This document shows, piece after piece, positions 3,891-63,990 of a stretch of 64,000 nucleotides of DNA. The stretch is taken from assembly GCA_018653315.1 (NCBI GenBank), contig JABIAL010000021.1, positions 3,029-67,028 of the forward strand, in the 5' to 3' direction. Below the pieces are notes generated by a model that searched no databases, had not been told where the DNA came from, and was given only the letters and a program-made list of their open reading frames with translations. This stretch comes from a bacterium. GTDB taxonomy: Bacteria > Patescibacteriota > Patescibacteriia > UBA1558 > GWA2-36-10. Both the position numbers and the translations under genes were made by a program. The number at the start of each line of letters is the position of its first letter. Positions within the stretch are counted from its first letter, which is position 1.

Positions 3891-4163
3891 TTATAATAAA
3901 GGATCATCTCCACCCTTAGCCCAAGGATGACAACGAAAAATTCGTCGCATGCCCTTGAATCCTCCTTTAACTGCTCCATATTTTTCTATCGCTTGATAGG
4001 TATATTCAGAACAATGTGGTTTAAATCGGCAGTGCCCAAGTGGGTATTTATATTTAAACCAACCCATGTCTGGTGATAACGTGTGTTGGTATATCCGAAT
4101 CAGTACTAATAAAAAAATTCTTAGTGGTCTTTCTAAAAAATAATAAACCTCATTTACCCGCAT
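3891..4163 (-). CDS. yidD: membrane protein insertion efficiency factor YidD
   Basis: 90 aa. CRFxPxCSEY and HPWAKGGDDP motifs. Positioned between rnpA and yidC. Confidence 0.8.
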   Translation of the reverse strand: MRVNEVYYFLERPLRIFLLVLIRIYQHTLSPDMGWFKYKYPLGHCRFKPHCSEYTYQAIEKYGAVKGGFKGMRRIFRCHPWAKGGDDPLL

Positions 4164-25164: not shown

Positions 25165-26456
25165 TGTTAGAAATTTTAGCTATAATTTGTTTGGGAGGAT
25201 TTTTACTGATAGCCAAGCGTAGTGTTGTCTGGGCCTTGGCGTTAATAATTTTATTGTTGCCTAGTTATTTATGGCGCCTAGATTTCTTAGGCTGGCCAAC
25301 AACCTTTTTGGAATTAATGATTGTTGGATTATTTATTTTTTGGTTAATTAAACAACAGCGACGACAAAAAATTAATTGGCGCCTAAGTGGTTTTGCTAAT
25401 AGGATAGCTAAACCATGGCGTTATTTCATATTAACTTGGTTATTGGTCAGTGTTATTGCTTTGATTTTTAATTTTAATTTATCAGCTCTTGGTTTATGGC
25501 GAGCATATTTTTTGGAACCAATTTTATTTTTATTAATATTTTTATACTCTGTTAAAAATAAAGAAGATCGACAAATTATATTTTATGGCCTAGGTGGTTT
25601 GGTTGTGTGGTTAGCTTTTGTTGCTATCTGGCAGAGTTTTACGGCCTGGAATTTACCAGCTGCTTATAATGAGCCTAATATTAAAAGGCTAACTGCAGTT
25701 TTTGCTTATCCTAATGCTTTGAGTTTATTGATCGCGCCTATTACGGCCTGGTTTACTGGTCTATGGCTAAGCAGTAAACATAAAAGTAAAGAGCTGGCTT
25801 ATTTAGGAGTAATCTTTTTAGGAATTTTATTATTAGTTTCCACCAAGAGCGAAGGAGCACTGTTGGCTTTTGGCTTTAGTTTATTATTTTATTTTTTCTT
25901 TGCCAAAATAGCCAATAAAAAGAAGTTGGCATTAGTTATAATTTTAATTCTAGCCATATTTTTGACACCTGCTAAAAATTATATTACTCAAGCTACAAAC
26001 GATATTTTACAGCCAAACTCGAATCAACATACAAGCTCTTTAGCTGTACGTAGTTTGCAGTGGCAGGAAACTACAGAATTATTACAGGATCATTGGCTGG
26101 TCGGAGCGGGTATTAATGGTTACCAAAAAATGATGGTAAATTACCATCAAATTACTTGGTTGGAAATATTTTTATATCCCCACAATATATTTTTGAATTT
26201 TTGGGTAGAATTAGGCTTCTTAGGTTTGCTACTTTTTATTACTTTGATGTCTTATTTAGCTAGAACGTGCTATGGGCTAATTAAAAATCAACATTATCTA
26301 GCCTGGGCCCTGACCTTGGCTTGGTTAACTTGGTTTGTTCATGGCTTAGTCGATGTGCCGTATTTTAAGAATGATTTAAGCGTTTTATTTTTTATATTAT
26401 TAGGACTTACTATACTAGCTGTTCGTGATAATAAATCCAACTCACGATTGTTATAA
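25164..26456 (+). CDS. O-antigen ligase/polymerase-like (Wzy_C family) membrane protein
   Basis: 430 aa polytopic protein with a large loop region in the C-terminal third, typical of the WaaL/Wzy fold. Confidence 0.5.
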   Translation: MLEILAIICLGGFLLIAKRSVVWALALIILLLPSYLWRLDFLGWPTTFLELMIVGLFIFWLIKQQRRQKINWRLSGFANRIAKPWRYFILTWLLVSVIALIFNFNLSALGLWRAYFLEPILFLLIFLYSVKNKEDRQIIFYGLGGLVVWLAFVAIWQSFTAWNLPAAYNEPNIKRLTAVFAYPNALSLLIAPITAWFTGLWLSSKHKSKELAYLGVIFLGILLLVSTKSEGALLAFGFSLLFYFFFAKIANKKKLALVIILILAIFLTPAKNYITQATNDILQPNSNQHTSSLAVRSLQWQETTELLQDHWLVGAGINGYQKMMVNYHQITWLEIFLYPHNIFLNFWVELGFLGLLLFITLMSYLARTCYGLIKNQHYLAWALTLAWLTWFVHGLVDVPYFKNDLSVLFFILLGLTILAVRDNKSNSRLL

Positions 26457-27801
26457 AATACAAGATCCCAAAAATATGAAAGATAGCTGGCGTGGTAATG
26501 TTGATTAACATTATCGCTAAAACGCTAGCTAATAAACCGAGATATAATTCTTGGTTTTTTGTTTGTTCAAAAACACGTTTCATTAAAAAGCCTAGTAAAA
26601 TTAAAGTAAATAGTAATCCAGCTAGTCCCCACTTAATCCAAATTTCGAACCAACCCCAATCAAAATGACGAGTGTTTATTTCATCAGTAATTACGCTCTG
26701 TCCCAAGCCTTGTCCCAAGATAGGCGCATCTTTTATCATGTCTACAATAGGCGGCAATAGCTCCATTCGGCTTTGTGAACTGACCTCTGTTTGGGGTGCG
26801 GTAATGCCACTAAATTTTATACCTAAAATTCCCCAGCCATTATCTGCACCTTGGCTGCTGACAATATTTATTATCGTAAATATACTAAAAATAATTAGAA
26901 TATTTAAAATAAGTATTTTAAACCAGCTTCTCCAGCTATTTTTATATTTCAAAATTAATAAACCGAGTAGTAACCCCAAAATATAAGCGCGAGAAATATT
27001 TAAACTAAAAATTAAACCACTTAACAATAATAAAACTAAATAAAAATTATGTTTATACTTTAACCAAGCCGTAGAGATGATCAAAATCACGGGCACCAGT
27101 AACAATTGCTCAGGAAAAACTATGCGCCAGAAATAAATGCTAGAGGCAGTGATTTTAGCTAAGGCAAAATCGCGCAACCAATTATAATAAGGTTGATGAA
27201 GTACAGCTAGATCAGTAGTAAATAAAATAAAATTAAATAAAGTCCAGGAAGCACTACTTATTAACCAGACAAAAAGCAATCGCGCTAAAAAGATTTTGTT
27301 ATTTTTATTTTTCCAAAAGTGATAAAGAGGAAAGATTAAGAAAATAAAAATTATCGGAATCAAATCCTGAATGATTAGTGGCAGAGGATTATGATTTTGC
27401 CAACCAATCAATGCAGCGGCAAATATGATGACAAAAAATATTGATAAGCTATAAACTATTTTTTTTGGCAGCTGTAATAATTCTTTGTGTTTTAGACTAT
27501 AAGAAAAATATAAAATCAAGAAAACTATAGTTAATAAAGTTCTCAATGACATGTCAGTTAATTCAAAAAAATGTCCTACGCCACCAAGTAGATATTCAGC
27601 TAATAAAAACTGTAAGGCATAATGCCAATTTTTATTAAATAAGTAAATTAGTATTATTAAAGCACTAATAACAACTAGGCCTTGTAAAAAAACAGCATCT
27701 CTTAAAGTAAAAGATAATAGTCTAACAGAAAAAAAGGCTAAAATTAGCCAATAAACTTGAGTAGAAATTATCTTTGCTTTTATATTGGAAAATGCTAACA
27801 T
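26410..27801 (-). CDS. O-antigen ligase/polymerase-like (Wzy_C family) membrane protein, paralog
   Basis: 463 aa polytopic protein. Its 3' end overlaps that of the preceding gene by 47 nt (convergent). Confidence 0.5.
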   Translation of the reverse strand: MLAFSNIKAKIISTQVYWLILAFFSVRLLSFTLRDAVFLQGLVVISALIILIYLFNKNWHYALQFLLAEYLLGGVGHFFELTDMSLRTLLTIVFLILYFSYSLKHKELLQLPKKIVYSLSIFFVIIFAAALIGWQNHNPLPLIIQDLIPIIFIFLIFPLYHFWKNKNNKIFLARLLFVWLISSASWTLFNFILFTTDLAVLHQPYYNWLRDFALAKITASSIYFWRIVFPEQLLLVPVILIISTAWLKYKHNFYLVLLLLSGLIFSLNISRAYILGLLLGLLILKYKNSWRSWFKILILNILIIFSIFTIINIVSSQGADNGWGILGIKFSGITAPQTEVSSQSRMELLPPIVDMIKDAPILGQGLGQSVITDEINTRHFDWGWFEIWIKWGLAGLLFTLILLGFLMKRVFEQTKNQELYLGLLASVLAIMLINITTPAIFHIFGILYFITIVSWIYYHEQLV

Positions 27802-27828
27802 AACATAGATATTGTAACATTATTTTAT

Positions 27829-27848
27829 GGAGGCGTGCTAGAGTGGTT
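27829..27848 (+). pseudogene. truncated 5' fragment of tRNA-Ser (first 20 nt) fused to a palindromic repeat
   Basis: GGAGGCGTGCTAGAGTGGTT matches the 5' end of the intact tRNA-Ser 88 nt downstream at 18 of 20 positions. It lacks anticodon and T arms. Confidence 0.5.
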
Positions 27849-27868
27849 CCTGCCTGCCGGCAGGCAGG
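27849..27868. repeat. copy B (perfect 20-bp palindrome CCTGCCTGCCGGCAGGCAGG) of the repeat family
   Basis: Perfectly self-complementary. Immediately follows the truncated tRNA-Ser fragment. Confidence 0.7.
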
Positions 27869-27916
27869 TAATAAGGCGATCCCGCCAGAGGCGGAAATAA
27901 TGATAATTTATATTTT

Positions 27917-28004
27917 GGAGGCGTGGCAGAGTGGTTTAATGCGTTGCTTTCGAAAAGCAATGTCTCGCAAGGGACCGAGGGTTCGAATCCTTCCGCCTCC
28001 GCCA
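27917..28004 (+). tRNA. tRNA-Ser (anticodon CGA)
   Basis: Acceptor GGAGGCG/CGCCTCC, anticodon stem TTGCT/AGCAA with loop TTCGAAA, long variable arm, T-loop TTCGAAT, encoded CCA. Confidence 0.8.
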
Positions 28005-28032
28005 ATGTTTATTTTAAATTAATTTAAATCAT

Positions 28033-29148
28033 ATGAAAAACGCAAAAAAAATCATTGACTCTTTATTGACCGGTACCGGCATTACTATCAATGGATCAAA
28101 TGTTTATGATCCGCAAGTACACAACGATAAGTTTTATAGCCGAGTTTTAAGAGGTGGTTCTTTAGCGCTTGGCGAGTCTTATATGGATGGTTGGTGGGAC
28201 TGTGAAAAACTTGATCAGTTTTTTCATAAGGTTCTCAAAGCAAATTTAGATGAACGCATTAAGAAAAATTTAGACTTAATGCTTAGAATTGCCTGGAATT
28301 TTGTTTTAAATCCAGGTAGAGAATCCAAGGCTTTTGAAGTAGGTGAAAAGCATTATGATATTGGTAATGCTTTATATCGTCAGATGCTTGATAAACGCCT
28401 TACCTATACTTGTGGTTATTGGAAAGACGTACAAGATTTAGATGAGGCAGAAGAAGCAAAATTAGACTTAGTTTGTAGAAAGATTGGACTTAATACTGGA
28501 CAGAGTATATTAGATATTGGTTCTGGTTGGGGCAGTTTCATTGGCTATGCTGCTGAAAAATATGATGCTCATACAGTTGGCTATACTATTTCCAGAGAAC
28601 AAAAAGAACTAGCCGACGAGATGTATAAAAAATATTCCGCTGAAACCAGGTTACAAGATTATCGTAATATTAATGAAAAATTTGACCATGTTGTTTCAAT
28701 CGGGATGTTTGAACATGTGGGCTATAAAAACCACCGTACTTTTATGAAGGTTGCTAGTAAGTCATTAAAAGATGATGGTTTATTTTTGTTACATACTATA
28801 GCTGGTAATAAGTCAGTCAAAGCGACTGATTCCTGGATTAATAAACATATTTTTCCAAATAGCATGTTGCCATCTATGACTCAGATCGGCAAAGCAATTG
28901 AGGGATTATTTGTGATAGAGGACGTGCATAATTTTGGTCCTGATTATGATAAGACATTGATGGCTTGGTTTGCTAATTTTGATAAGGCTTGGCCAGGGAT
29001 AAAACAAAATTATTCCGAACGTTTTTATCGTATGTGGAAATATTATCTTTTGTCCTGTGCTGGTAGTTTTCGAGCTAGACGTATTCAATTATGGCAAATT
29101 GTTTTGTCTAAACATGGAGTCGCTAATGGATATAAATCAGTTAGATAA
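28033..29148 (+). CDS. cfa: cyclopropane-fatty-acyl-phospholipid synthase family SAM-dependent methyltransferase
   Basis: 371 aa. CMAS-family blocks (YDIGNALYRQML, LDIGSGWGS SAM-binding motif, conserved C-terminal region). Confidence 0.8.
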   Translation: MKNAKKIIDSLLTGTGITINGSNVYDPQVHNDKFYSRVLRGGSLALGESYMDGWWDCEKLDQFFHKVLKANLDERIKKNLDLMLRIAWNFVLNPGRESKAFEVGEKHYDIGNALYRQMLDKRLTYTCGYWKDVQDLDEAEEAKLDLVCRKIGLNTGQSILDIGSGWGSFIGYAAEKYDAHTVGYTISREQKELADEMYKKYSAETRLQDYRNINEKFDHVVSIGMFEHVGYKNHRTFMKVASKSLKDDGLFLLHTIAGNKSVKATDSWINKHIFPNSMLPSMTQIGKAIEGLFVIEDVHNFGPDYDKTLMAWFANFDKAWPGIKQNYSERFYRMWKYYLLSCAGSFRARRIQLWQIVLSKHGVANGYKSVR

Positions 29149-29227
29149 TAGCTCGTAATTATTGATATTTTATACATAATCAGTAACACATCTATTGGGT
29201 TGCCGGTTTTTTTGTTATAATGAAAAT

Positions 29228-29818
29228 ATGAAAAAAATACAGACAACGATGAGTACGCGTATACTATTATTGGTTAATATATTTCCGATTATTGGGATTA
29301 TATTTTTTGATTGGAATATTTTCAGTATCTTTTTTCTATATTGGGCAGAATCAGCAGCAATAGGTATTTTTAATATTTTCAAGATGTTTAAAATTGGTGG
29401 TCCACTTTCTGTGCCATTGGTAATATTTTTTATATTCCATTACTCGGTTTTTATGATGGCTCATTTGATGTTTATCATGGTCTTATTTAATCCAGGAGGC
29501 ATGTTGATGGTAATGAATCAATCAGATTTAATAATTTATTTCAAAGATATTTATATTGTTTTGGCATTTATATTTATTAGTCATGGTTTTTCATTTGTAG
29601 TTAATTTTTATCAAAAAAAAGAATACAGCAAAACAACCTTAGGTAAACAAATGGGTGCTCCGTATGCTCGCATCATAATAATGCAACTAGCTATTATATT
29701 TGGTGGTTTTTTACTGATGTTATTGCATAGTCAAATATTAGTGGCTATATTGTTAGTTGCTCTTAAGATATTCTTTGATCTTAAGGCACATAATAAAGAA
29801 CATTTAATAAAAACATGA
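29228..29818 (+). CDS. polytopic membrane protein, hypothetical
   Basis: About 5-6 TM helices. Start chosen at MKKIQTT rather than the upstream ORF start. No recognisable motif. Confidence 0.35.
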   Translation: MKKIQTTMSTRILLLVNIFPIIGIIFFDWNIFSIFFLYWAESAAIGIFNIFKMFKIGGPLSVPLVIFFIFHYSVFMMAHLMFIMVLFNPGGMLMVMNQSDLIIYFKDIYIVLAFIFISHGFSFVVNFYQKKEYSKTTLGKQMGAPYARIIIMQLAIIFGGFLLMLLHSQILVAILLVALKIFFDLKAHNKEHLIKT

Positions 29819-30411
29819 AAAAAATAGTTCTCACTGGCGGTCCATGTGGAGGAAAGACTACTTTTCTCGAGGCTCTAGAAAAAGAGCTTGGTGCAAATAT
29901 TATTATTGTGCCAGAAGCAGCGACTATTTTGTTGAGTGGTGGTTTTTTGGAACCGAACAAAGACATTTCTTGGTCTGAAGATTGGCAAACAGCATTTGAA
30001 TACGCTGTTTTTCATTTGCAAAAATCTCTTGAAGAAACAGCTATACTACAGGCTAAAGAAAAGGGAATCTCTGTGTTAGTTTGTGATCGAGGCTCTTTGG
30101 ACGCGGCGGTTTTTTTACCTGGAGGCTTGGGGCAAGCACAATTATTACTTAATCTTGATGTGACCAGTGAAAGATTACGATACCACGCAGTACTTCATTT
30201 AGAGTCTTTGGCAACAGCTGATTCAGATAAATATAGCTCAGCAGGTAACGGGCATCGTATTGAGTCATTAGAGCAAGCAAAGAAAATGGAATTACTCTCG
30301 CAAGAGGTTTGGTCGCAGCACAAAAATTATTTTTTTATTGACGGGCAAAGAAGTGTAGATAGTAAAATTGGAGAAGCTCTAGATTTAGTAAGAAAGATTT
30401 TAGACACGTAG
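29815..30411 (+). CDS. P-loop ATPase of the AAA_28 / NadR-like predicted ATPase family
   Basis: 198 aa with Walker A GGPCGGKTT. A 4-nt overlap with the upstream membrane gene suggests co-translation. Confidence 0.55.
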   Translation: MKKIVLTGGPCGGKTTFLEALEKELGANIIIVPEAATILLSGGFLEPNKDISWSEDWQTAFEYAVFHLQKSLEETAILQAKEKGISVLVCDRGSLDAAVFLPGGLGQAQLLLNLDVTSERLRYHAVLHLESLATADSDKYSSAGNGHRIESLEQAKKMELLSQEVWSQHKNYFFIDGQRSVDSKIGEALDLVRKILDT

Positions 30412-33692: not shown

Positions 33693-34043
33693 ATGTTAAA
33701 CAAAAAGAAAAATATTTTATTTACCTTGTTTTTATTGAGCGTACCTTGGTGTGTCCAAGCGGGCACGGCACTACATAATCCATTAGAGGGTAGTGCTAGT
33801 GATTTTCCAACATTAATTGGTGGTGTTATTAGAGGAATGTTGGGTGTAGTGGGGGCAGTAGCCTTAATTATGATTGTTATCGGAGGTATTACTTGGATGA
33901 CTTCATCTGGTAATGCTGATAGGGTACGCCGTGGCAAAGACACATTGGTTTGGGCGGTCATTGGTTTAACTGCTATATTTTTAAGTTACGCAGTTGTTAA
34001 TTTTATATTTGATGCCGTTGTTAGAGGTGGCTCAGGATCTTAG
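33693..34043 (+). CDS. VirB2/TrbC-like (T4SS-pilin-like) small two-TM protein, paralog 2
   Basis: 116 aa. Signal peptide, TM1, loop GGITWMTSSGNADRV, TM2. Confidence 0.5.
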   Translation: MLNKKKNILFTLFLLSVPWCVQAGTALHNPLEGSASDFPTLIGGVIRGMLGVVGAVALIMIVIGGITWMTSSGNADRVRRGKDTLVWAVIGLTAIFLSYAVVNFIFDAVVRGGSGS

Positions 34044-34044
34044 G

Positions 34045-34073
34045 TTGAATAAATGACATTTTTGTTTTATAAT
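34045..34073 (+). promoter_or_regulatory. sigma70-like promoter for paralog 3
   Basis: TTGAAT, 17-nt spacer, TATAAT (34068-34073). A strong AAGGGGGTGA Shine-Dalgarno sits before the ATG at 34115. Confidence 0.45.
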
Positions 34074-34114
34074 AATTGTATGAAATTATGTTTTTATAGA
34101 AAGGGGGTGAAAAA

Positions 34115-34462
34115 ATGAACAAAATAATTACAAGTTTATTATTGTTAGCTCCAATGGCCGCTTCAGCTGCTACCAATCCGTTTGGTGTTGATGATTTAAC
34201 ATCTACAGGCTTGGGTACACAAGATTTAAAGACAACCATTGCTAGTATTATTAATGTTGTTTTAGGATTCTTAGGAATCATCGCTACTTTAATTATTCTT
34301 TTAGGTGGTTTTAAATGGATGACCTCTCAAGGTAGTTCTGAAAAAGTAGATGAGGCTAAAAAACTTATCGGTGCTGGTGTTGTAGGATTAGTCATAGTAT
34401 TAGCAGCTTATGCTATTGCTAGATTTGTTTTGACAAATGTTTATGAGGCAACAACCGCATAA
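34115..34462 (+). CDS. VirB2/TrbC-like small two-TM protein, paralog 3
   Basis: 115 aa. Loop GGFKWMTSQGSSEKV. Confidence 0.5.
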   Translation: MNKIITSLLLLAPMAASAATNPFGVDDLTSTGLGTQDLKTTIASIINVVLGFLGIIATLIILLGGFKWMTSQGSSEKVDEAKKLIGAGVVGLVIVLAAYAIARFVLTNVYEATTA

Positions 34463-34559
34463 CAGGCTTATTATAGTCTAGACTATAGTAGGTCATGCAA
34501 GTGACCTACTAAAGTGTAGATTAAAATAGTACCGGTATAATAAATCAAAAAACAAACAG

Positions 34560-34904
34560 ATGAACAAAATAATTACAAGTTTATTATTACTAGCTCCGAT
34601 GGCCGCTTCAGCTGATCTTAGTGATCTTGGTTATGATGATTTAGATTCTGTACATTTGGGTACGCAAGATCTAAAGACAACTATTGCTAGTATTATTAAT
34701 GTAGTTTTAGGATTCTTAGGAATCATCGCTACTTTAATTATTCTTTTAGGTGGTTTTAAATGGATGACCTCTCAAGGTAGTACTGAAAAAGTAAGCGAAG
34801 CTAAAAATCTGATCGGCGCTGGTGTTGTAGGATTAGTCATAGTATTAGCAGCTTATGCTATTGCTAGATTTGTTTTACGAGAAGTTTATCAAGCAACTTA
34901 TTGA
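34560..34904 (+). CDS. VirB2/TrbC-like small two-TM protein, paralog 4 (near-identical recent duplicate of paralog 3)
   Basis: 114 aa, about 95 percent nucleotide identity to paralog 3 except for a ~50-nt segment encoding the mature N-terminus. Confidence 0.5.
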   Translation: MNKIITSLLLLAPMAASADLSDLGYDDLDSVHLGTQDLKTTIASIINVVLGFLGIIATLIILLGGFKWMTSQGSTEKVSEAKNLIGAGVVGLVIVLAAYAIARFVLREVYQATY

Positions 34905-34949
34905 TATATTTTAGCATAGTTTATATTAAGTATTTTTAACAAAATAAAC

Positions 34950-35324
34950 ATGAAACATAAAATATTTTTTACATTTTTGTTATTATTACCAATGCAAGCA
35001 GCTGCGTCAGCAGCGCAGGATGGATTAGATGCTGCCGCTGCCCAGGCTGGACTTAATACTGATCGTAGTGTTATTGATATGATTGCCATTGTGATTAATG
35101 CAATTTTGAGCTTGTTAGCAATGATTTTTATTGTGTTGATTATCTTAGGTGGTTTTCGTTGGATGACTTCAGCTGGAAATGCTACAAAGGTAGATTCTGC
35201 TAAACAGACTATATCAAATGCAGTTATTGGTTTAGTAATAGTTGTGGCTGCTTATGCTATTGCTACATTTGTATTAGGAGCAGTAGTTGGTAGTACTAGT
35301 GGCGGTGGAGTTACACAACCTTAA
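34950..35324 (+). CDS. VirB2/TrbC-like small two-TM protein, paralog 5
   Basis: 124 aa. Loop GGFRWMTSAGNATKV and a Gly/Ser-rich C-terminus. Confidence 0.5.
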   Translation: MKHKIFFTFLLLLPMQAAASAAQDGLDAAAAQAGLNTDRSVIDMIAIVINAILSLLAMIFIVLIILGGFRWMTSAGNATKVDSAKQTISNAVIGLVIVVAAYAIATFVLGAVVGSTSGGGVTQP

Positions 35325-35390: not shown

Positions 35391-36038
35391 TTACTCGATG
35401 CTAATCACCCAATCAACGAGCCGCCCGTTTAACTCGGCATCCTTTTTAATGTTATTGATGCGAGTTACATATTTCATCTTCCGGTTTTGGGAAGCATTGA
35501 TTGGCTGGTAATAAATGGTGATATTACCAGGTGTCATAGCGGTCATCTCGCTAACCTGGCCGACATTCAGAACACCATATTGATGTCCTTTACTGTCCCA
35601 GATACGACACTTCCAGCGTGTCGAATTGATGATTACACCACTTTGCAACACTATGTTGCGTAATAGCATCTCATCAATCCTGACGACCTGTACACCACCC
35701 CATCTGGCGGTGCGCTTGATCGGTGCCACAATTTCTTCGCTACTCCAACCATTTTCCTCCCACGTTTTGACCAGAATAGTGATCTGATCTCTTCTGGCGA
35801 TTGATTCACTGTGAGAGCATCCTGTGTTGAGTTCCATATAATGCATTCCTGGTTCTTGTTTGATGCGCACCATATAGCGTTCATCTTCGCTGGTGTTTTC
35901 AAATCTCCACTCAGATTTTTTTTCATCATAGTCTTCTCCACCATGATAGGCGGGTCGGACTGTTCCGGCGCAATTACTCAAAATCAGCATCATTGCTAAT
36001 AATGAACAAAAAGCCACCATTTTTTTCAGCGTTTTCAT
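35391..36038 (-). CDS. lipoprotein, hypothetical (GC-richer than surroundings)
   Basis: 215 aa. Signal peptide with lipobox LSNCAG. No recognisable domain. The gene looks about 10 points GC-richer than its neighbours by eye. Confidence 0.45.
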   Translation of the reverse strand: MKTLKKMVAFCSLLAMMLILSNCAGTVRPAYHGGEDYDEKKSEWRFENTSEDERYMVRIKQEPGMHYMELNTGCSHSESIARRDQITILVKTWEENGWSSEEIVAPIKRTARWGGVQVVRIDEMLLRNIVLQSGVIINSTRWKCRIWDSKGHQYGVLNVGQVSEMTAMTPGNITIYYQPINASQNRKMKYVTRINNIKKDAELNGRLVDWVISIE

Positions 36039-43281: not shown

Positions 43282-43872
43282 ATGTCACACAAAATAATTT
43301 TTGAAGGAGCAGAATTAACTGGTAAGAGTTGGCTAATGAGTCAGGTCTATGACCACATTGAGCCAAAATATAACAGTGGCAATAAAATTTTAGATGGTTG
43401 TCATTGGTTTAATTGCGATGTCGGTATTTTTGGTACAAAATATGGTCAAGTAGCTTTGCAAAAGTATCTAGAATTGACCGAAGAATTAAAAGAGGCCAAT
43501 GTAATGCTAGAAAAGTTTCATCTTAGCGAAGCAGTTTACCAAAAATTATACAATAATCAAAATTTCCTGCCTGCCGGCAGACAAGGTGATTTTTCAGCTA
43601 TAGAAAATCGTTTACAAAAATTAAACACTAAAATAATCTTGGTTACTTTTCCAGAAGATGAAAAAATTATACAGGCTCGTTTACAAGATCGGCTAAATCT
43701 TTACCCCCATTATGAAAAAATAGCTCAAGCTCCAACAGACTACATAAAACAGCAACGGCTATTTAAAGAACTAATAAAGCAAAGTAAGCTAGAATATCTA
43801 ATTATAGAAACAAATAAATTACCAGATGAGAGTCTGGTTGATAAAATATTGCAATTTATTGGTGAAAAATAA
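43282..43872 (+). CDS. small P-loop protein, possible nucleoside/nucleotide-kinase fold, hypothetical
   Basis: 196 aa with Walker A-like GAELTGKS. Carries an in-frame copy of the palindromic repeat (encoding FLPAGRQ). Confidence 0.35.
   Translation: MSHKIIFEGAELTGKSWLMSQVYDHIEPKYNSGNKILDGCHWFNCDVGIFGTKYGQVALQKYLELTEELKEANVMLEKFHLSEAVYQKLYNNQNFLPAGRQGDFSAIENRLQKLNTKIILVTFPEDEKIIQARLQDRLNLYPHYEKIAQAPTDYIKQQRLFKELIKQSKLEYLIIETNKLPDESLVDKILQFIGEK
43566..43586. repeat. copy C of the palindromic repeat family (CCTGCCTGCCGGCAGaCAaGG), inside a CDS
   Basis: Left arm and core are perfect; the right arm is degenerate. It is in frame within the 43282-43872 CDS. Confidence 0.55.
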
Positions 43873-61646: not shown

Positions 61647-62948
61647 TTATTTCCTGCCTGCCGGTAGGCTAGGTACTATTTTTTTGCTAATAAATTCAAT
61701 GATTTTACGGTTGGTCAAAGCATTGGCTAAGTATTGACGATAGTGTGGAGTTTTCAGATCTTTTAAAGCTTGTTCATTGCCTTGGTAGCCAACTTCTTGT
61801 TTTTTTAGCTCATCATCTACTTCTTTAGCTTCTACTTTGATTTTTTCGGTTTCTGCTAATTTACGTAGAACCAAAGCAGCGTTAACTCGTTCCATGGCTT
61901 GAGGTCGGAAATCTTTTTCTAAATCTTCTTGAGTTTTTTTAATAGATTTCAAATAGCCAGCCATTTCCATTCCTTGTTGTTGGATATTGTGTTGCAATTC
62001 ATGAGTCATTTTATGTACCTCTGATTTTATCAATGTCTCTGGTAACGCTTCAATTTTTGCAGCAGACACTACAGTTTCAATTGCTTCTTTTTCTATGCGT
62101 TGTTGTTCTTTTTGTTTTTTTTCTTTGACAATATTTTCTTCAAGTTGTTTTAGTAATGCTTCTTTAGTTTCAAAACCAATACCCTTAGCAAAGTCATCAT
62201 TGACTTCTGGCATGTTTCTTTCGTAAATGCCCAAAACTTTTACTTTGAAGTTAGTTAGTTTGCCAGCTAAATTTTCTTGGAAATATTTATCTGGAAATTT
62301 AAGATCAAAGTTTAATTCATCACCAGCTTTAGTGCCAACAATTTTTTCTTCAAAACCAGGAATCATTTGTCCTTGTCCTAAAATAATTGGATGCTTGCTA
62401 CTTTTACCGCCTTCAATAACAACTTTGTTTATAGAAGCCTCAAAGTCAACTTCTACTTTGTCACCTTGATTGGCTACGCGCTCAACTAATTTTTCTTCTA
62501 CACGCATGTTTGTTAATTGCTCTAAAGTTTTTTTGATATCATCCTCTTCAGCCTTAACTTCTTTTTTCTTCAATTCTTTATTTTGCCATTCACCAAGAGT
62601 AACCTCTGGTAACAAAGAAACTATCGCAGTATAAACAACGGGATTACCAGGAGCTAATTTTTCTACTTTTATTTCTGGCTGGCCAATTGTTTCTATTTTT
62701 TCTTTAGTCACAGCATTATAGAAAGATTCATTTATAATTCCTTCTAAAGCTTCTTGCCAGATATTCATTTCACCGACTTTAGCCTTCACTAAATCATAAG
62801 GAGCCTTTCCAGGACGAAAGCCAGGAATTTTAGTTTGTTGAGCTAATTTAGTAGCTGCTCGATCTAAGTGAGGCTTGATTTCTTCTAAACTAACCTCAAT
62901 TTTTAGTTCAATTTGTTTTTTTTCTAGATCTTTTTTATCAATTTTCAT
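61647..62948 (-). CDS. tig: trigger factor (ribosome-associated PPIase chaperone)
   Basis: Ribosome-binding N-domain, FKBP-like middle and C-terminal arm. Start placed at MKIDKKDLEKKQIELKIEV, but the track ORF extends to 63104, so the start is uncertain. The last 6-7 codons (LPAGRK-stop) are encoded by a copy of the palindromic repeat. Confidence 0.8.
   Translation of the reverse strand: MKIDKKDLEKKQIELKIEVSLEEIKPHLDRAATKLAQQTKIPGFRPGKAPYDLVKAKVGEMNIWQEALEGIINESFYNAVTKEKIETIGQPEIKVEKLAPGNPVVYTAIVSLLPEVTLGEWQNKELKKKEVKAEEDDIKKTLEQLTNMRVEEKLVERVANQGDKVEVDFEASINKVVIEGGKSSKHPIILGQGQMIPGFEEKIVGTKAGDELNFDLKFPDKYFQENLAGKLTNFKVKVLGIYERNMPEVNDDFAKGIGFETKEALLKQLEENIVKEKKQKEQQRIEKEAIETVVSAAKIEALPETLIKSEVHKMTHELQHNIQQQGMEMAGYLKSIKKTQEDLEKDFRPQAMERVNAALVLRKLAETEKIKVEAKEVDDELKKQEVGYQGNEQALKDLKTPHYRQYLANALTNRKIIEFISKKIVPSLPAGRK
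61653..61673. repeat. copy D of the palindromic repeat family (CCTGCCTGCCGGtAGGCtAGG) overlapping the tig stop codon
   Basis: Left arm and core are perfect, right arm degenerate. Encodes the terminal LPAGRK of tig. Confidence 0.55.
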
Positions 62949-63063
62949 TAGGTTTTTATCAATTTTAAGTAGGCTGAGTATAGCCAAAATCGTCTTTTTT
63001 GTCAATAAAAAAGACCTACCACGTGGTTGTGATAGGTTCTTTGCTAATGTAAGGTGCATAGGC

Positions 63064-63990
63064 TCAGTCAGGCCATTCTTCTTCTTTATTACCGAAACGA
63101 TCATCGAACAACTTGCCAGCTAAGAGCATTAGATAAGCCAGGAGTTTTCCGCAAGCGATGTAGATGATCAGAAGCAAGTTGAAGTGGAAGTAGCTAAAGT
63201 TTGTTTCCGGTAGCAACATATCTACATAAATAGTGACGTAAACAAGAGCAAGGAGCAATCCATGAACAATGAACATTAGTCCACCCGTATCACCTGAGGA
63301 TTCTAGTGGAGAAAAGAATGCGAATATAAATGATCCCATGATTCCGATGACAGTGAACATCAAGAACCATCCACTGCCTTGATAGGTAACCATCAGATTG
63401 ATGAATATCAAAGCACATAGGTAATAGATAATACTGACCCAACCAAGGGGATGGAAATGTTTTTCTTTGGCTTTGTTGCGAATTATCCAGAATAAGGAAA
63501 AACCCAGTAAAGCTAGCAAGCCAAATAGATAGATTGAGTCGACCTCTTTGTTTGCCGGTAAGTTGTAAGCTGAATATGCGAACGATTCGTTTTTTGGATT
63601 AAAGGTCAGTAAACAAATTATATATTCGCCACTAAGCACTGGTGCCCTCCAAGGAGGTAGTAGTTTGGCGGAGTGCCACTCATATGATTCCAGCTTGTTG
63701 GTGTCAGGCTCCTCACCAATCATTCGACGTAATTGCCAAAGTCTTCGTAGGTCTTGGTGAGTGTTCTCAGGGATGGCATAGGCGGCCTTGAGTTCAACTG
63801 GACGAGTAAGATTGATCTGAATGGTTTCCTGACGATAGAACATCAGAGAGTCGCCAATGATTTGTGAACTCTCTTTAATATTTGATGTGTATGTGCTGTC
63901 TGGTTCTGGCATCGGATCAGCCGATGCACCGACATTAATTAGTAACATTGCCAGGTAAATAAGGTAAAAAAATGACGACTTCATAATCAT
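63064..63990 (-). CDS. signal-peptide-bearing polytopic membrane protein, hypothetical
   Basis: 308 aa. N-terminal signal peptide, ~150-aa extracytoplasmic domain, then 4-5 TM helices. Somewhat GC-richer than the genome background. Confidence 0.35.
   Translation of the reverse strand: MIMKSSFFYLIYLAMLLINVGASADPMPEPDSTYTSNIKESSQIIGDSLMFYRQETIQINLTRPVELKAAYAIPENTHQDLRRLWQLRRMIGEEPDTNKLESYEWHSAKLLPPWRAPVLSGEYIICLLTFNPKNESFAYSAYNLPANKEVDSIYLFGLLALLGFSLFWIIRNKAKEKHFHPLGWVSIIYYLCALIFINLMVTYQGSGWFLMFTVIGIMGSFIFAFFSPLESSGDTGGLMFIVHGLLLALVYVTIYVDMLLPETNFSYFHFNLLLIIYIACGKLLAYLMLLAGKLFDDRFGNKEEEWPD

Follow-up and report, generated by a model that had tools for sequence, protein, structure and literature searches.

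A palindrome-bearing tRNA remnant upstream of tRNA-Ser(CGA) in a patescibacterial genome does not mark a cfa island and may be the scar of a GIY-YIG-associated rearrangement

Classical tRNA islands repeat the 3' end of the tRNA at their far boundary. Here we describe an 88-bp structure (27829-27916) directly upstream of the tRNA-Ser(CGA) gene in a 64,000-nucleotide stretch of contig JABIAL010000021.1 from a member of the Patescibacteriota, referred to below as the window. The structure contains a partial copy of the 5' end of this tRNA fused to a perfect 20-nucleotide (nt) palindrome, here named PAL. Like the attachment-site scars of tyrosine-integrase islands and prophages, it places a partial copy beside an intact tRNA gene, and the intact gene appears to be a chimera of resident and incoming sequence. 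It differs from such scars in that the 5' part and not the 3' part is duplicated, in that 68 nt rather than kilobases are enclosed, and in that there is no integrase nearby and no distal repeat in the 64 kb. We read the 88 bp, with a probability of roughly 0.55, as the scar of a small rearrangement at tRNA-Ser, the window copy being a form without an open reading frame (ORF) of a GIY-YIG-associated, tRNA-targeted cassette that perhaps arrived by break repair.

A second point of comparison is phage T4 SegB, presented in PMC2330249 as a free-standing GIY-YIG homing endonuclease in a tRNA gene region. As in that system, tRNA genes of loci related to ours have GIY-YIG genes between or within them, and the insertion is found at a conserved site in some relatives and missing in others. 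A tract around the window site may be co-inherited flank. The window differs in being without a nuclease gene and in the duplication of the 5' part of the tRNA together with a hairpin insertion, and the putative nucleases of the related loci are small, bare catalytic domains.

As for PAL itself, Rickettsia palindromic elements and yeast mitochondrial GC clusters are generally known as short, palindromic, GC-rich insertions in AT-rich genomes, where they occupy intergenic sites and RNA genes and also interrupt protein genes without shifting the reading frame. PAL resembles them in these respects, but it is 20 to 21 bp long, is identical in contigs with GC contents of 0.29 to 0.71, including phage contigs, has no target duplication and favours hairpin loops. 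Repetitive extragenic palindromic (REP) elements, mobilised by REP-associated tyrosine transposases (RAYTs), are likewise short GC-rich palindromes with many copies that often form intergenic hairpins; PAL is not species-specific as REPs are. A REP/RAYT origin was ruled out, as there was no conserved GTAG/CTAC flank and no transposase-like family recurring within 1.5 kb. We regard PAL as a short palindromic mobile element of a new variety, tied to a tRNA-remodelling layout for which no description was found: in the literature searched, we found neither the PAL string nor any paper on bacterial cassettes of GIY-YIG genes, tRNAs and palindromes.

The preliminary description of this DNA, made from the sequence alone, reported a 20-nt copy of the tRNA-Ser 5' end located 88 nt upstream of the intact gene and fused to a perfect palindrome, and the coordinates, ARAGORN and Rfam, and shuffling all agree with this (Table 1). 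The copy at 27829-27848 matches the tRNA starting at 27917 at 18 of 20 positions, with CT in place of GC, and no match of this grade arose in any of 100 shuffled sequences. Start-to-start spacing is 88 nt, so the two copies enclose only 68 nt, and the repeat reaches about 20 nt 5' of the tRNA start (27809-27848 versus 27897-27936, 78% identity). The fragment directly abuts PAL (CCTGCCTGCCGGCAGGCAGG, 27849-27868). Three assemblies of this species that were made independently of one another contain the identical 88-bp structure (L087, L090 and L091; contigs used for comparison carry L numbers), and a fourth contig, L088, begins inside PAL, where it is broken at the palindrome. A sequencing adapter or assembly artefact was ruled out, as the same structures come from MEGAHIT and SPAdes assemblies of different samples; for PAL, this is also ruled out by the existence of decayed copies, including an in-frame one within a protein that 20 contigs encode.

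Table 1. Coordinates of the features discussed (window positions; L001 is a contig of the closest sister lineage)
Feature	Position	Strand	Basis or remark
Ancestral upstream (promoter/leader) region of the resident tRNA-Ser, in its original place, adjoining the start of the divergent Wzy_C gene	27799-27828	+	27/30 versus L001
Remnant of ancestral tRNA-Ser, nt 1-20 (acceptor 5' strand, D-stem 5' strand, D-loop)	27829-27848	+	20/20 versus L001
PAL, perfect 20-bp palindrome within the D-loop of the remnant	27849-27868		CCTGCCTGCCGGCAGGCAGG; tRNA sequence resumes directly after
Remnant of ancestral tRNA-Ser, nt 21-30, TAATAAGGCG	27869-27878	+	8/10 versus L001 TAATAGGGCA
38-nt spacer: hairpin CCGCC-AGA-GGCGG (27882-27894), then AT-rich stretch up to the working tRNA	27879-27916	+	Not in L001
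Working tRNA-Ser(CGA)	27917-28004	+	ARAGORN; Rfam tRNA, 58 bits
5' part of the working tRNA (at least nt 10-48), probable allele other than the resident one		+	Comparison with L001
Second PAL copy, decayed; in-frame 21-nt insertion (LPAGRQG) in P-loop kinase-like gene 43282-43872	43566-43586	+	
Third PAL-like copy, decayed, 3 mismatches to PAL	61653-61672		Last codons and stop of trigger factor gene
Tract of reduced divergence from the sister lineage	26335-29949		Two-breakpoint segmentation versus L001
cfa, cyclopropane-fatty-acyl-phospholipid synthase	28033-29148	+	PF02353, E 5.7e-84
Left 22-nt direct repeat, TAATGAAAATATGAAAAAAATA, duplicate of the AAA_28 start region	29218-29239	+	91% identity versus 29805-29826
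Polytopic membrane protein gene (DUF6498), inserted between cfa and AAA_28 in this lineage only	29249-29818	+	PF20108, E 4.7e-51
Right 22-nt direct repeat, with the true AAA_28 start codon	29805-29826	+	Junction alignment with L001
AAA_28 P-loop protein gene, ancestral neighbour of cfa	29815-30411	+	PF13521, E 2e-21

Which of the two tRNA copies is the old one was judged from related lineages reached via homologues of the downstream gene cfa (L001 to L003, cfa 92% identical; L004 to L006, cfa 76% identical). At the orthologous site, L001 has a single tRNA-Ser and is without exactly the 88 bp. L004 is without them too, and L087, L090 and L091 share them with the window. Nucleotides 1 to 20 of the fragment agree with the 5' end of the L001 tRNA at all 20 positions, and the 30 nt 5' of the fragment agree with the 30 nt 5' of the L001 tRNA-Ser at 27 positions, compared with only 12 of 30 for the sequence 5' of the working tRNA. 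Following PAL, the 10-mer TAATAAGGCG matches nt 21 to 30 of L001 (TAATAGGGCA) at 8 of 10 positions (chance, about 8e-4) and the working tRNA at 6 of 10. Since tRNA sequence resumes after PAL and matches L001, PAL is a clean 20-nt insertion in the D-loop of an approximately 30-nt remnant that is still in its original place.

The working tRNA, in turn, shows 11 differences from L001 (nt 10, 11, 25, 26, 28, 29, 30, 42, 43, 44 and 48). Most of them are paired changes in stems, and the last 40 nt are free of differences. The derived state T11 is common to the fragment and L001 and is found neither in the working tRNA nor in the outgroup L004; the working tRNA keeps the outgroup state at nt 11 and has changes of its own. 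A local event would involve neither a cassette nor an imported allele: slippage or unequal exchange would have duplicated the upstream region and the 5' third of the tRNA, and the upstream copy would have decayed and later been hit by PAL, which a dead tRNA fragment can tolerate. The inclusion in the repeat of some 20 nt 5' of the tRNA speaks for such an event. However, it is the supposedly dead fragment that is identical over 20/20 nt to the sister tRNA, whereas the working gene carries 11 changes, including the return to the outgroup state at nt 11/25, and an unchanged fragment beside a working gene with 11 changes is the opposite of what in-place duplication followed by decay predicts. Judged from these alignments, simple in-place duplication appears to fit poorly, and we hold with moderate confidence that a replacement allele, probably brought in, makes up the 5' part of the working tRNA.

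The second PAL copy of the window lies in frame in a kinase-like gene. Its LPAGRQG residues are missing from 8/8 aligned homologues of the protein, and the ortholog DNA in L262 reads TTT directly followed by TGA at this site, so that the window has 21 extra bases and no target duplication. The third, PAL-like copy overlaps the end of the trigger factor ORF (61647-63104, minus strand), which has Trigger_N, FKBP_C and Trigger_C matches; a T-rich stretch comes next on the plus strand. Outside the window, the exact 20-mer was recovered in 35 stretches of viral contigs and at least 120 stretches of metagenome contigs; together, these give at least 167 distinct sites, as judged by distinct flanks, compared with an expectation of 0 from window shuffles. 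The host contigs (GC, 0.29-0.71) include phage-like and Patescibacteria-like sequence and are not confined to one lineage. Some hold several copies, and decayed variants and one tandem array are present. This array, at 3916-4142 of the viral contig L130, repeats a 21-nt variant of PAL (CATGCCTACCGGCAGGCAGG plus C) at least ten times in a row up to the contig end; it may be real or an assembly loop. These comparisons firmly support PAL being an insertion, and we regard it as a tiny mobile insertion in unrelated bacterial and phage genomes.

Target-site duplication was considered and rejected, as 102 of the 167 listed sites show none and 54 a single base; cases of 14 nt and 8 nt are exceptions. 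The flanks show only a weak preference for a purine at -1 and a pyrimidine at +1. By inspection, PAL is often located at the tip of an existing hairpin (e.g., L153 and L200) or beside a terminator-like hairpin (L201 and L213), and nested hairpins occur inside PAL-type loops in L016 and L231. PAL has no stop codon in any of its three frames (LPAGRQ, CLPAGR and PACRQA), with the same reading on both strands, and thus can survive within genes.

About 14 of the 167 listed sites are in tRNA genes or fragments, although, by our estimate, such genes account for well below 1% of the DNA in a bacterial genome. Complete tRNAs with PAL include a phage tRNA-Met in which PAL serves as the variable arm (L121) and a relative in L098, which has PAL and an adjacent 13-nt deletion; 3' tRNA fragments with PAL stand beside intact tRNAs in L171 and L188. 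At 180-400 of L171, an intact tRNA-Ala has a 5' fragment on its upstream side, and the 3' fragment downstream of it carries PAL in the T-loop. The borders of this intact gene are inverted repeats (ctgctattgcc and ggcaatagcag), and it looks as if a tRNA gene had been inserted into a tRNA gene. With regard to a local origin of the window structure, it should be noted that PAL in a working single-copy tRNA is probably selected against, so that survivorship alone could place PAL in fragments.

The arrangement seen in the window recurs. A 5' tRNA fragment with PAL, followed by a small GIY-YIG gene or a spacer and then by an intact tRNA, is found in seven other contigs, namely, L186 (tRNA-Ser-GGA), L215 (Val-GAC), L209 (two sites), L128, L180, L230 (Arg-TCG) and L235 (Leu). 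An eighth contig, L016, which was fetched through cfa and not through PAL, shares this layout, but here another GC hairpin takes the place of PAL in the D-loop. In L186, GGAGGGGTCGCATAGT, PAL and GGTCTAGTGC follow one another and are separated by 44 nt from an intact tRNA-Ser(GGA) that shares the first 26 nt. A second L186 unit, with a one-base PAL variant, precedes the GIY-YIG gene just upstream. The unit before the tRNA, which agrees with the window unit in its parts and nearly in size (16+20+10+44 nt, versus 20+20+10+38 nt in the window), is a copy of the unit preceding the GIY-YIG gene, and the window spacer at 27879-27916 is positionally equivalent to the 44-nt spacer of L186 unit 2.

In L215 (tRNA-Val) and at the first L209 site, the fragment with PAL is followed by a short spacer and an intact tRNA, and the fragment differs from the adjacent tRNA. 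In L128, L180, L230, L235 and at the second L209 site, the fragment with PAL extends up to the anticodon arm and is followed by a small ORF; the fragment with PAL is present twice in L230 and L235. An intact tRNA follows the small ORF in L128, L230 and L235. At the second L209 site, the contig ends soon after another tRNA-Lys(CTT) copy begins, and L180 was assigned to the layout from its fragment, PAL and ORF.

GIY-YIG genes are located between fragment and tRNA in L128, L180, L230, L235 and L016; in L186 and L209, they lie beside the fragment. Five of these ORFs were tested (L128, L209, L180, L016 and L186), and all are GIY-YIG domains (PF01541, E values of 1e-14 to 1e-18); those of L230 and L235 were identified via tblastn only. 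The associated proteins, of about 80 to 90 amino acids, consist of the bare catalytic domain. When ORFs within 1.5 kb of PAL were clustered, GIY-YIG was the sole protein family recurring across otherwise unrelated contigs, and 7 of the 14 GIY-YIG matches in all fetched DNA are no more than 350 nt from a PAL. GIY-YIG contexts were also sampled in viral contigs without selection for PAL, which gave 3 loci; the two new ones are not tRNA-linked. The possibility that PAL represents the joined terminal repeats of a GIY-YIG element was rejected, as no ORF lies between separated PAL halves.

These loci bear on the local duplication introduced above in two ways. Fragments identical to the adjacent intact tRNA, as seen in L186, L128, L016, L230 and L235, are what it leads one to expect, but the small GIY-YIG genes between fragment and tRNA in five analogous loci, and those flanking the fragment in L186 and L209, speak against it. 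Overall, we consider a local origin unlikely. In light of the recurrence of this fragment-hairpin, GIY-YIG-or-spacer and tRNA design in unrelated Patescibacteria-like contigs, we read the window copy as an ORF-less cassette, and a GIY-YIG-associated, tRNA-targeted cassette without its ORF is the most likely identity of the scar. The involvement of GIY-YIG nucleases is proposed tentatively; we infer the GIY-YIG link, the break-repair route and any present-day role.

Other small GIY-YIG ORFs were observed between the arms of GC-rich inverted repeats, at about 11490-11790 in L008 (AACCCCGCCCTT...AAGGGCGGGGT) and about 2080-2400 in L191 (TACCCCGTTAG...CTAACGGGGTG), where they look as if they had been inserted into terminator hairpin loops. 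In L128, a tRNA gene at 822-1485 is broken after the start of the anticodon loop by about 560 nt encoding an HNH nuclease (ORF 907-1392); this looks like an intron-like interruption and is located directly 3' of the unit of fragment, PAL and GIY-YIG gene.

Segmentation of the alignment with L001 delimits a tract with an identity of 0.874 inside (2910 columns) and 0.773 outside (likelihood-ratio statistic, 156), which spans one Wzy_C gene, the tRNA, cfa and the start of AAA_28. On the left, it begins about 1.5 kb before the scar; on the right, it continues for about 1.3 kb past the tRNA if the DUF6498 insertion, which has no counterpart in the alignment, is not counted. Synonymous divergence (dS) from L001 is 0.53 for the Wzy_C gene on the left (Wzy2) and 0.50 for cfa, compared with 0.99 to 3.0 for 12 neighbouring genes. 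This pattern suggests recombination between lineages and would be expected if the tRNA locus had been the centre of an exchange with a relative of L001; its link to the scar is likewise one that we infer.

On the reading that we favour, the resident tRNA-Ser(CGA) would have been hit by a small rearrangement in which a new upstream region and a new 5' tRNA part, from a different allele, were placed before the body of the old gene. The old upstream region and the first 30 or so nucleotides of the old tRNA would thereby have been stranded upstream, with PAL in the D-loop, PAL being an element that would land without target duplication and often in the loops of existing hairpins. Arrival by break repair from a related donor would also explain the low-divergence tract.

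The order of events could also have been reversed. A PAL in the D-loop would first have disabled the only tRNA-Ser(CGA), which would then have been rescued by the uptake of DNA from a related strain. Homologous recombination would have joined this DNA next to cfa and illegitimate recombination at its other end, so that the disabled 5' part stayed behind. In favour of this order, PAL has demonstrably been inserted in this lineage, the working tRNA probably represents another allele, the low-divergence tract covers the locus, and the window encodes pilin-like genes, which could serve DNA uptake. Nevertheless, the tract also covers about 1.5 kb to the left of the scar, unlike what a one-sided anchor predicts, ordinary two-sided homologous replacement would have removed PAL cleanly, and the GIY-YIG genes in the same layout elsewhere are left unexplained; we therefore consider this order of events improbable.

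Several observations weigh against the cassette that we favour. No GIY-YIG gene or remnant was detected in the 64-kb window by tblastn with three cassette proteins, and the 38-nt spacer, compared by eye only, has no resemblance to the spacers or cassettes of the other loci. All analogous loci but one were found via PAL, so the way of sampling itself accounts in part for the association of tRNA fragments with PAL. In most of these loci, the fragment is identical to the intact tRNA, which a local duplication explains as well as an imported allele does. Identity within the tract peaks (95-96%) near the DUF6498 site and not at the tRNA, and this may reflect a different exchange. Finally, the tRNA comparison rests on three lineages only, and stem changes in tRNAs can be fast.

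The upstream piece could instead be a functional RNA, such as a structured 5' leader, a decoy or an attenuator for tRNA-Ser or cfa expression. With the ancestral upstream region intact, transcription probably runs through the fragment, PAL and spacer before it reaches the tRNA, the predicted minimum-energy fold pairs GGAGGCG of the fragment with the 3' acceptor strand of the tRNA, and the structure is identical in the three assemblies. These, however, represent one species, so that no covariation can be drawn from them, and the sister lineage does without the piece. The folding z-score of the RNA comprising fragment and tRNA is just -2.0, which is not informative, and at permissive Rfam thresholds the tRNA was the only significant family in 27700-28100; a match to the P9 sRNA (25 bits versus a gathering score of 43) merely reflects two hairpins and was discarded. 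A simple promoter scan gave no plus-strand site within 27790-27916. Rfam, promoter scan and folding thus give a present-day function no support, and we consider a functional RNA very unlikely; the scar is probably neutral and is perhaps transcribed within a long tRNA leader.

The preliminary description had gone further and taken the partial copy for the integration scar of a small genomic island comprising cfa, a polytopic membrane protein gene and an AAA_28 ATPase gene. Pfam confirmed the identities of these downstream genes; for cfa, the match to PF02353 (Pfam CMAS) reaches 282 bits against a cut-off of 27, with residues 98-356 covering profile positions 4-273 of 273. Their supposedly higher GC content was not confirmed, as windowed GC is 0.305 to 0.348 across 28-30.5 kb and 0.32 to 0.36 in the flanks. 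Measured against the 53 ORFs of the window, the composition of cfa, DUF6498 and AAA_28 is ordinary both in GC (z-scores of +0.13, -1.87 and +1.34, respectively) and at third codon positions (GC3 z-scores of +0.14, -0.11 and +0.45). Probes from the 5' end, middle and 3' end of the tRNA, searched on both strands of the whole 64 kb with up to 3 mismatches, gave the fragment at 27829 as their sole hit and thus no second repeat boundary. No integrase or recombinase was found by Pfam in the ten ORFs of 22.6-33.7 kb or in the precomputed Pfam annotation of syntenic relatives over about 21 kb.

Gene order likewise speaks for long residence. In L001 to L003, it is RecA, Polysacc_synt, Wzy_C, Wzy_C(-), tRNA-Ser, cfa, AAA_28, GalU, SBP and pilins, and the window has this order plus DUF6498. 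L004 to L006 have RecA...Wzy_C(-), tRNA-Ser, cfa and AAA_28, with other genes interspersed, so that cfa and AAA_28 occupy the same tRNA-Ser site in both groups and only DUF6498 is absent. Nor is a cyclopropane-fatty-acid synthase unusual in this lineage, as had been suggested: cfa is common in Patescibacteria, and among the best 120 homologues (63-100% identical), all that have a taxon name more specific than "bacterium" belong to the Parcubacteria/Patescibacteria radiation. In species-representative genomes, where closer relatives were sought, the best match is only 71% identical.

A classical island, in which an integrase-type element carrying the three genes inserted at tRNA-Ser and left an attachment-site scar, would be consistent with the existence of a partial tRNA copy and with the variability of the locus, which has HTH_11, DUF302, cupin and Bro-N genes in L004 to L006 and DUF6498 in the window. 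Homologues of cfa that are 73-74% identical are located in quite different contexts, and cfa lies no more than 300 nt 3' of a same-strand tRNA of another identity in other Patescibacteria-like genomes (L007, Pro-CGG; L010, Glu-CTC; L024, Thr-CGT; L053, Pro-GGG). This arrangement seems more frequent than expected by chance; in these four, no tRNA repeat bounds cfa, except for a second tRNA-Pro-like sequence about 4 kb downstream in L053. Against an island stand the conserved position of cfa and AAA_28 in lineages whose cfa is 92% and 76% identical, the ordinary composition and codon use, the neighbours without an integrase and the 64 kb without a second tRNA-derived repeat, and a repeat that consists of the 5' end, lies upstream of the tRNA and encloses just 68 nt. 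We consider such an island extremely unlikely and conclude firmly that the 88 bp are not an island boundary and that there is no cfa island. What stands of the earlier proposal is that the partial copy is an insertion or replacement scar at a flexible locus; the inserted material is not cfa and AAA_28, which are old residents, this cfa copy being old at a locus of a flexible type. The idea that membrane-lipid modification was acquired horizontally at the tRNA had been framed so as to fall with uniform composition, conserved synteny and the lack of a second repeat boundary, and all three were observed.

The one recent gain at this site is DUF6498, a single gene rather than three, which is separate from the tRNA scar. 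The two copies of the 22-nt direct repeat (Table 1) bound the insertion. The gene is absent from L001 to L003, and L004 to L006 have DUF302 and cupin genes in its place. Its sole close homologue is the same species' own copy, and the next best is 39% identical.

Two further features of the window were noted. Four tandem paralogous small genes at 33693-35324, whose sister-lineage counterparts match T4SS_pilin, contain long internal direct repeats (a 300-nt pair, 88%) and are strongly diverged from the sister lineage. A 215-amino-acid ORF without a Pfam match (35391-36038, minus strand) is the compositional outlier of the region (GC 0.438, z +2.7; GC3 0.477, z +3.8), and a similar unannotated ORF is located at the same place in the sister lineage.

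A more far-reaching idea, which we regard as doubtful, is that PAL, together with its variants, represents a family of hairpin elements of minimal length (20-21 bp) that crosses phyla and copies itself into the single-stranded loops of other hairpins, namely, tRNA D-, variable and T-loops, terminator tips and its own loops. Such elements would perhaps be moved in trans by small single-domain GIY-YIG nucleases that themselves nest in the anticodon and terminator loops of Patescibacteria. Together, the two would make up an undescribed selfish system that remodels tRNA genes and leaves arrays of a fragment with a hairpin, a nuclease gene and a restored tRNA.

In summary, cfa is to be treated as part of this clade's own gene set, there being no evidence for its acquisition with a tRNA-linked island. 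The work draws attention to a 20-bp palindrome that behaves as a mobile insertion in very different genomes, in frame in proteins and within tRNA genes, and to a recurring rebuilding of tRNA genes around small GIY-YIG genes in ultra-small bacteria. If PAL and the GIY-YIG genes are linked, they would be a source of annotation errors, with tRNAs that are split, short ORFs that are spurious and contigs that break at the palindrome, and would offer a testable case of selfish elements that use tRNA genes without destroying them.

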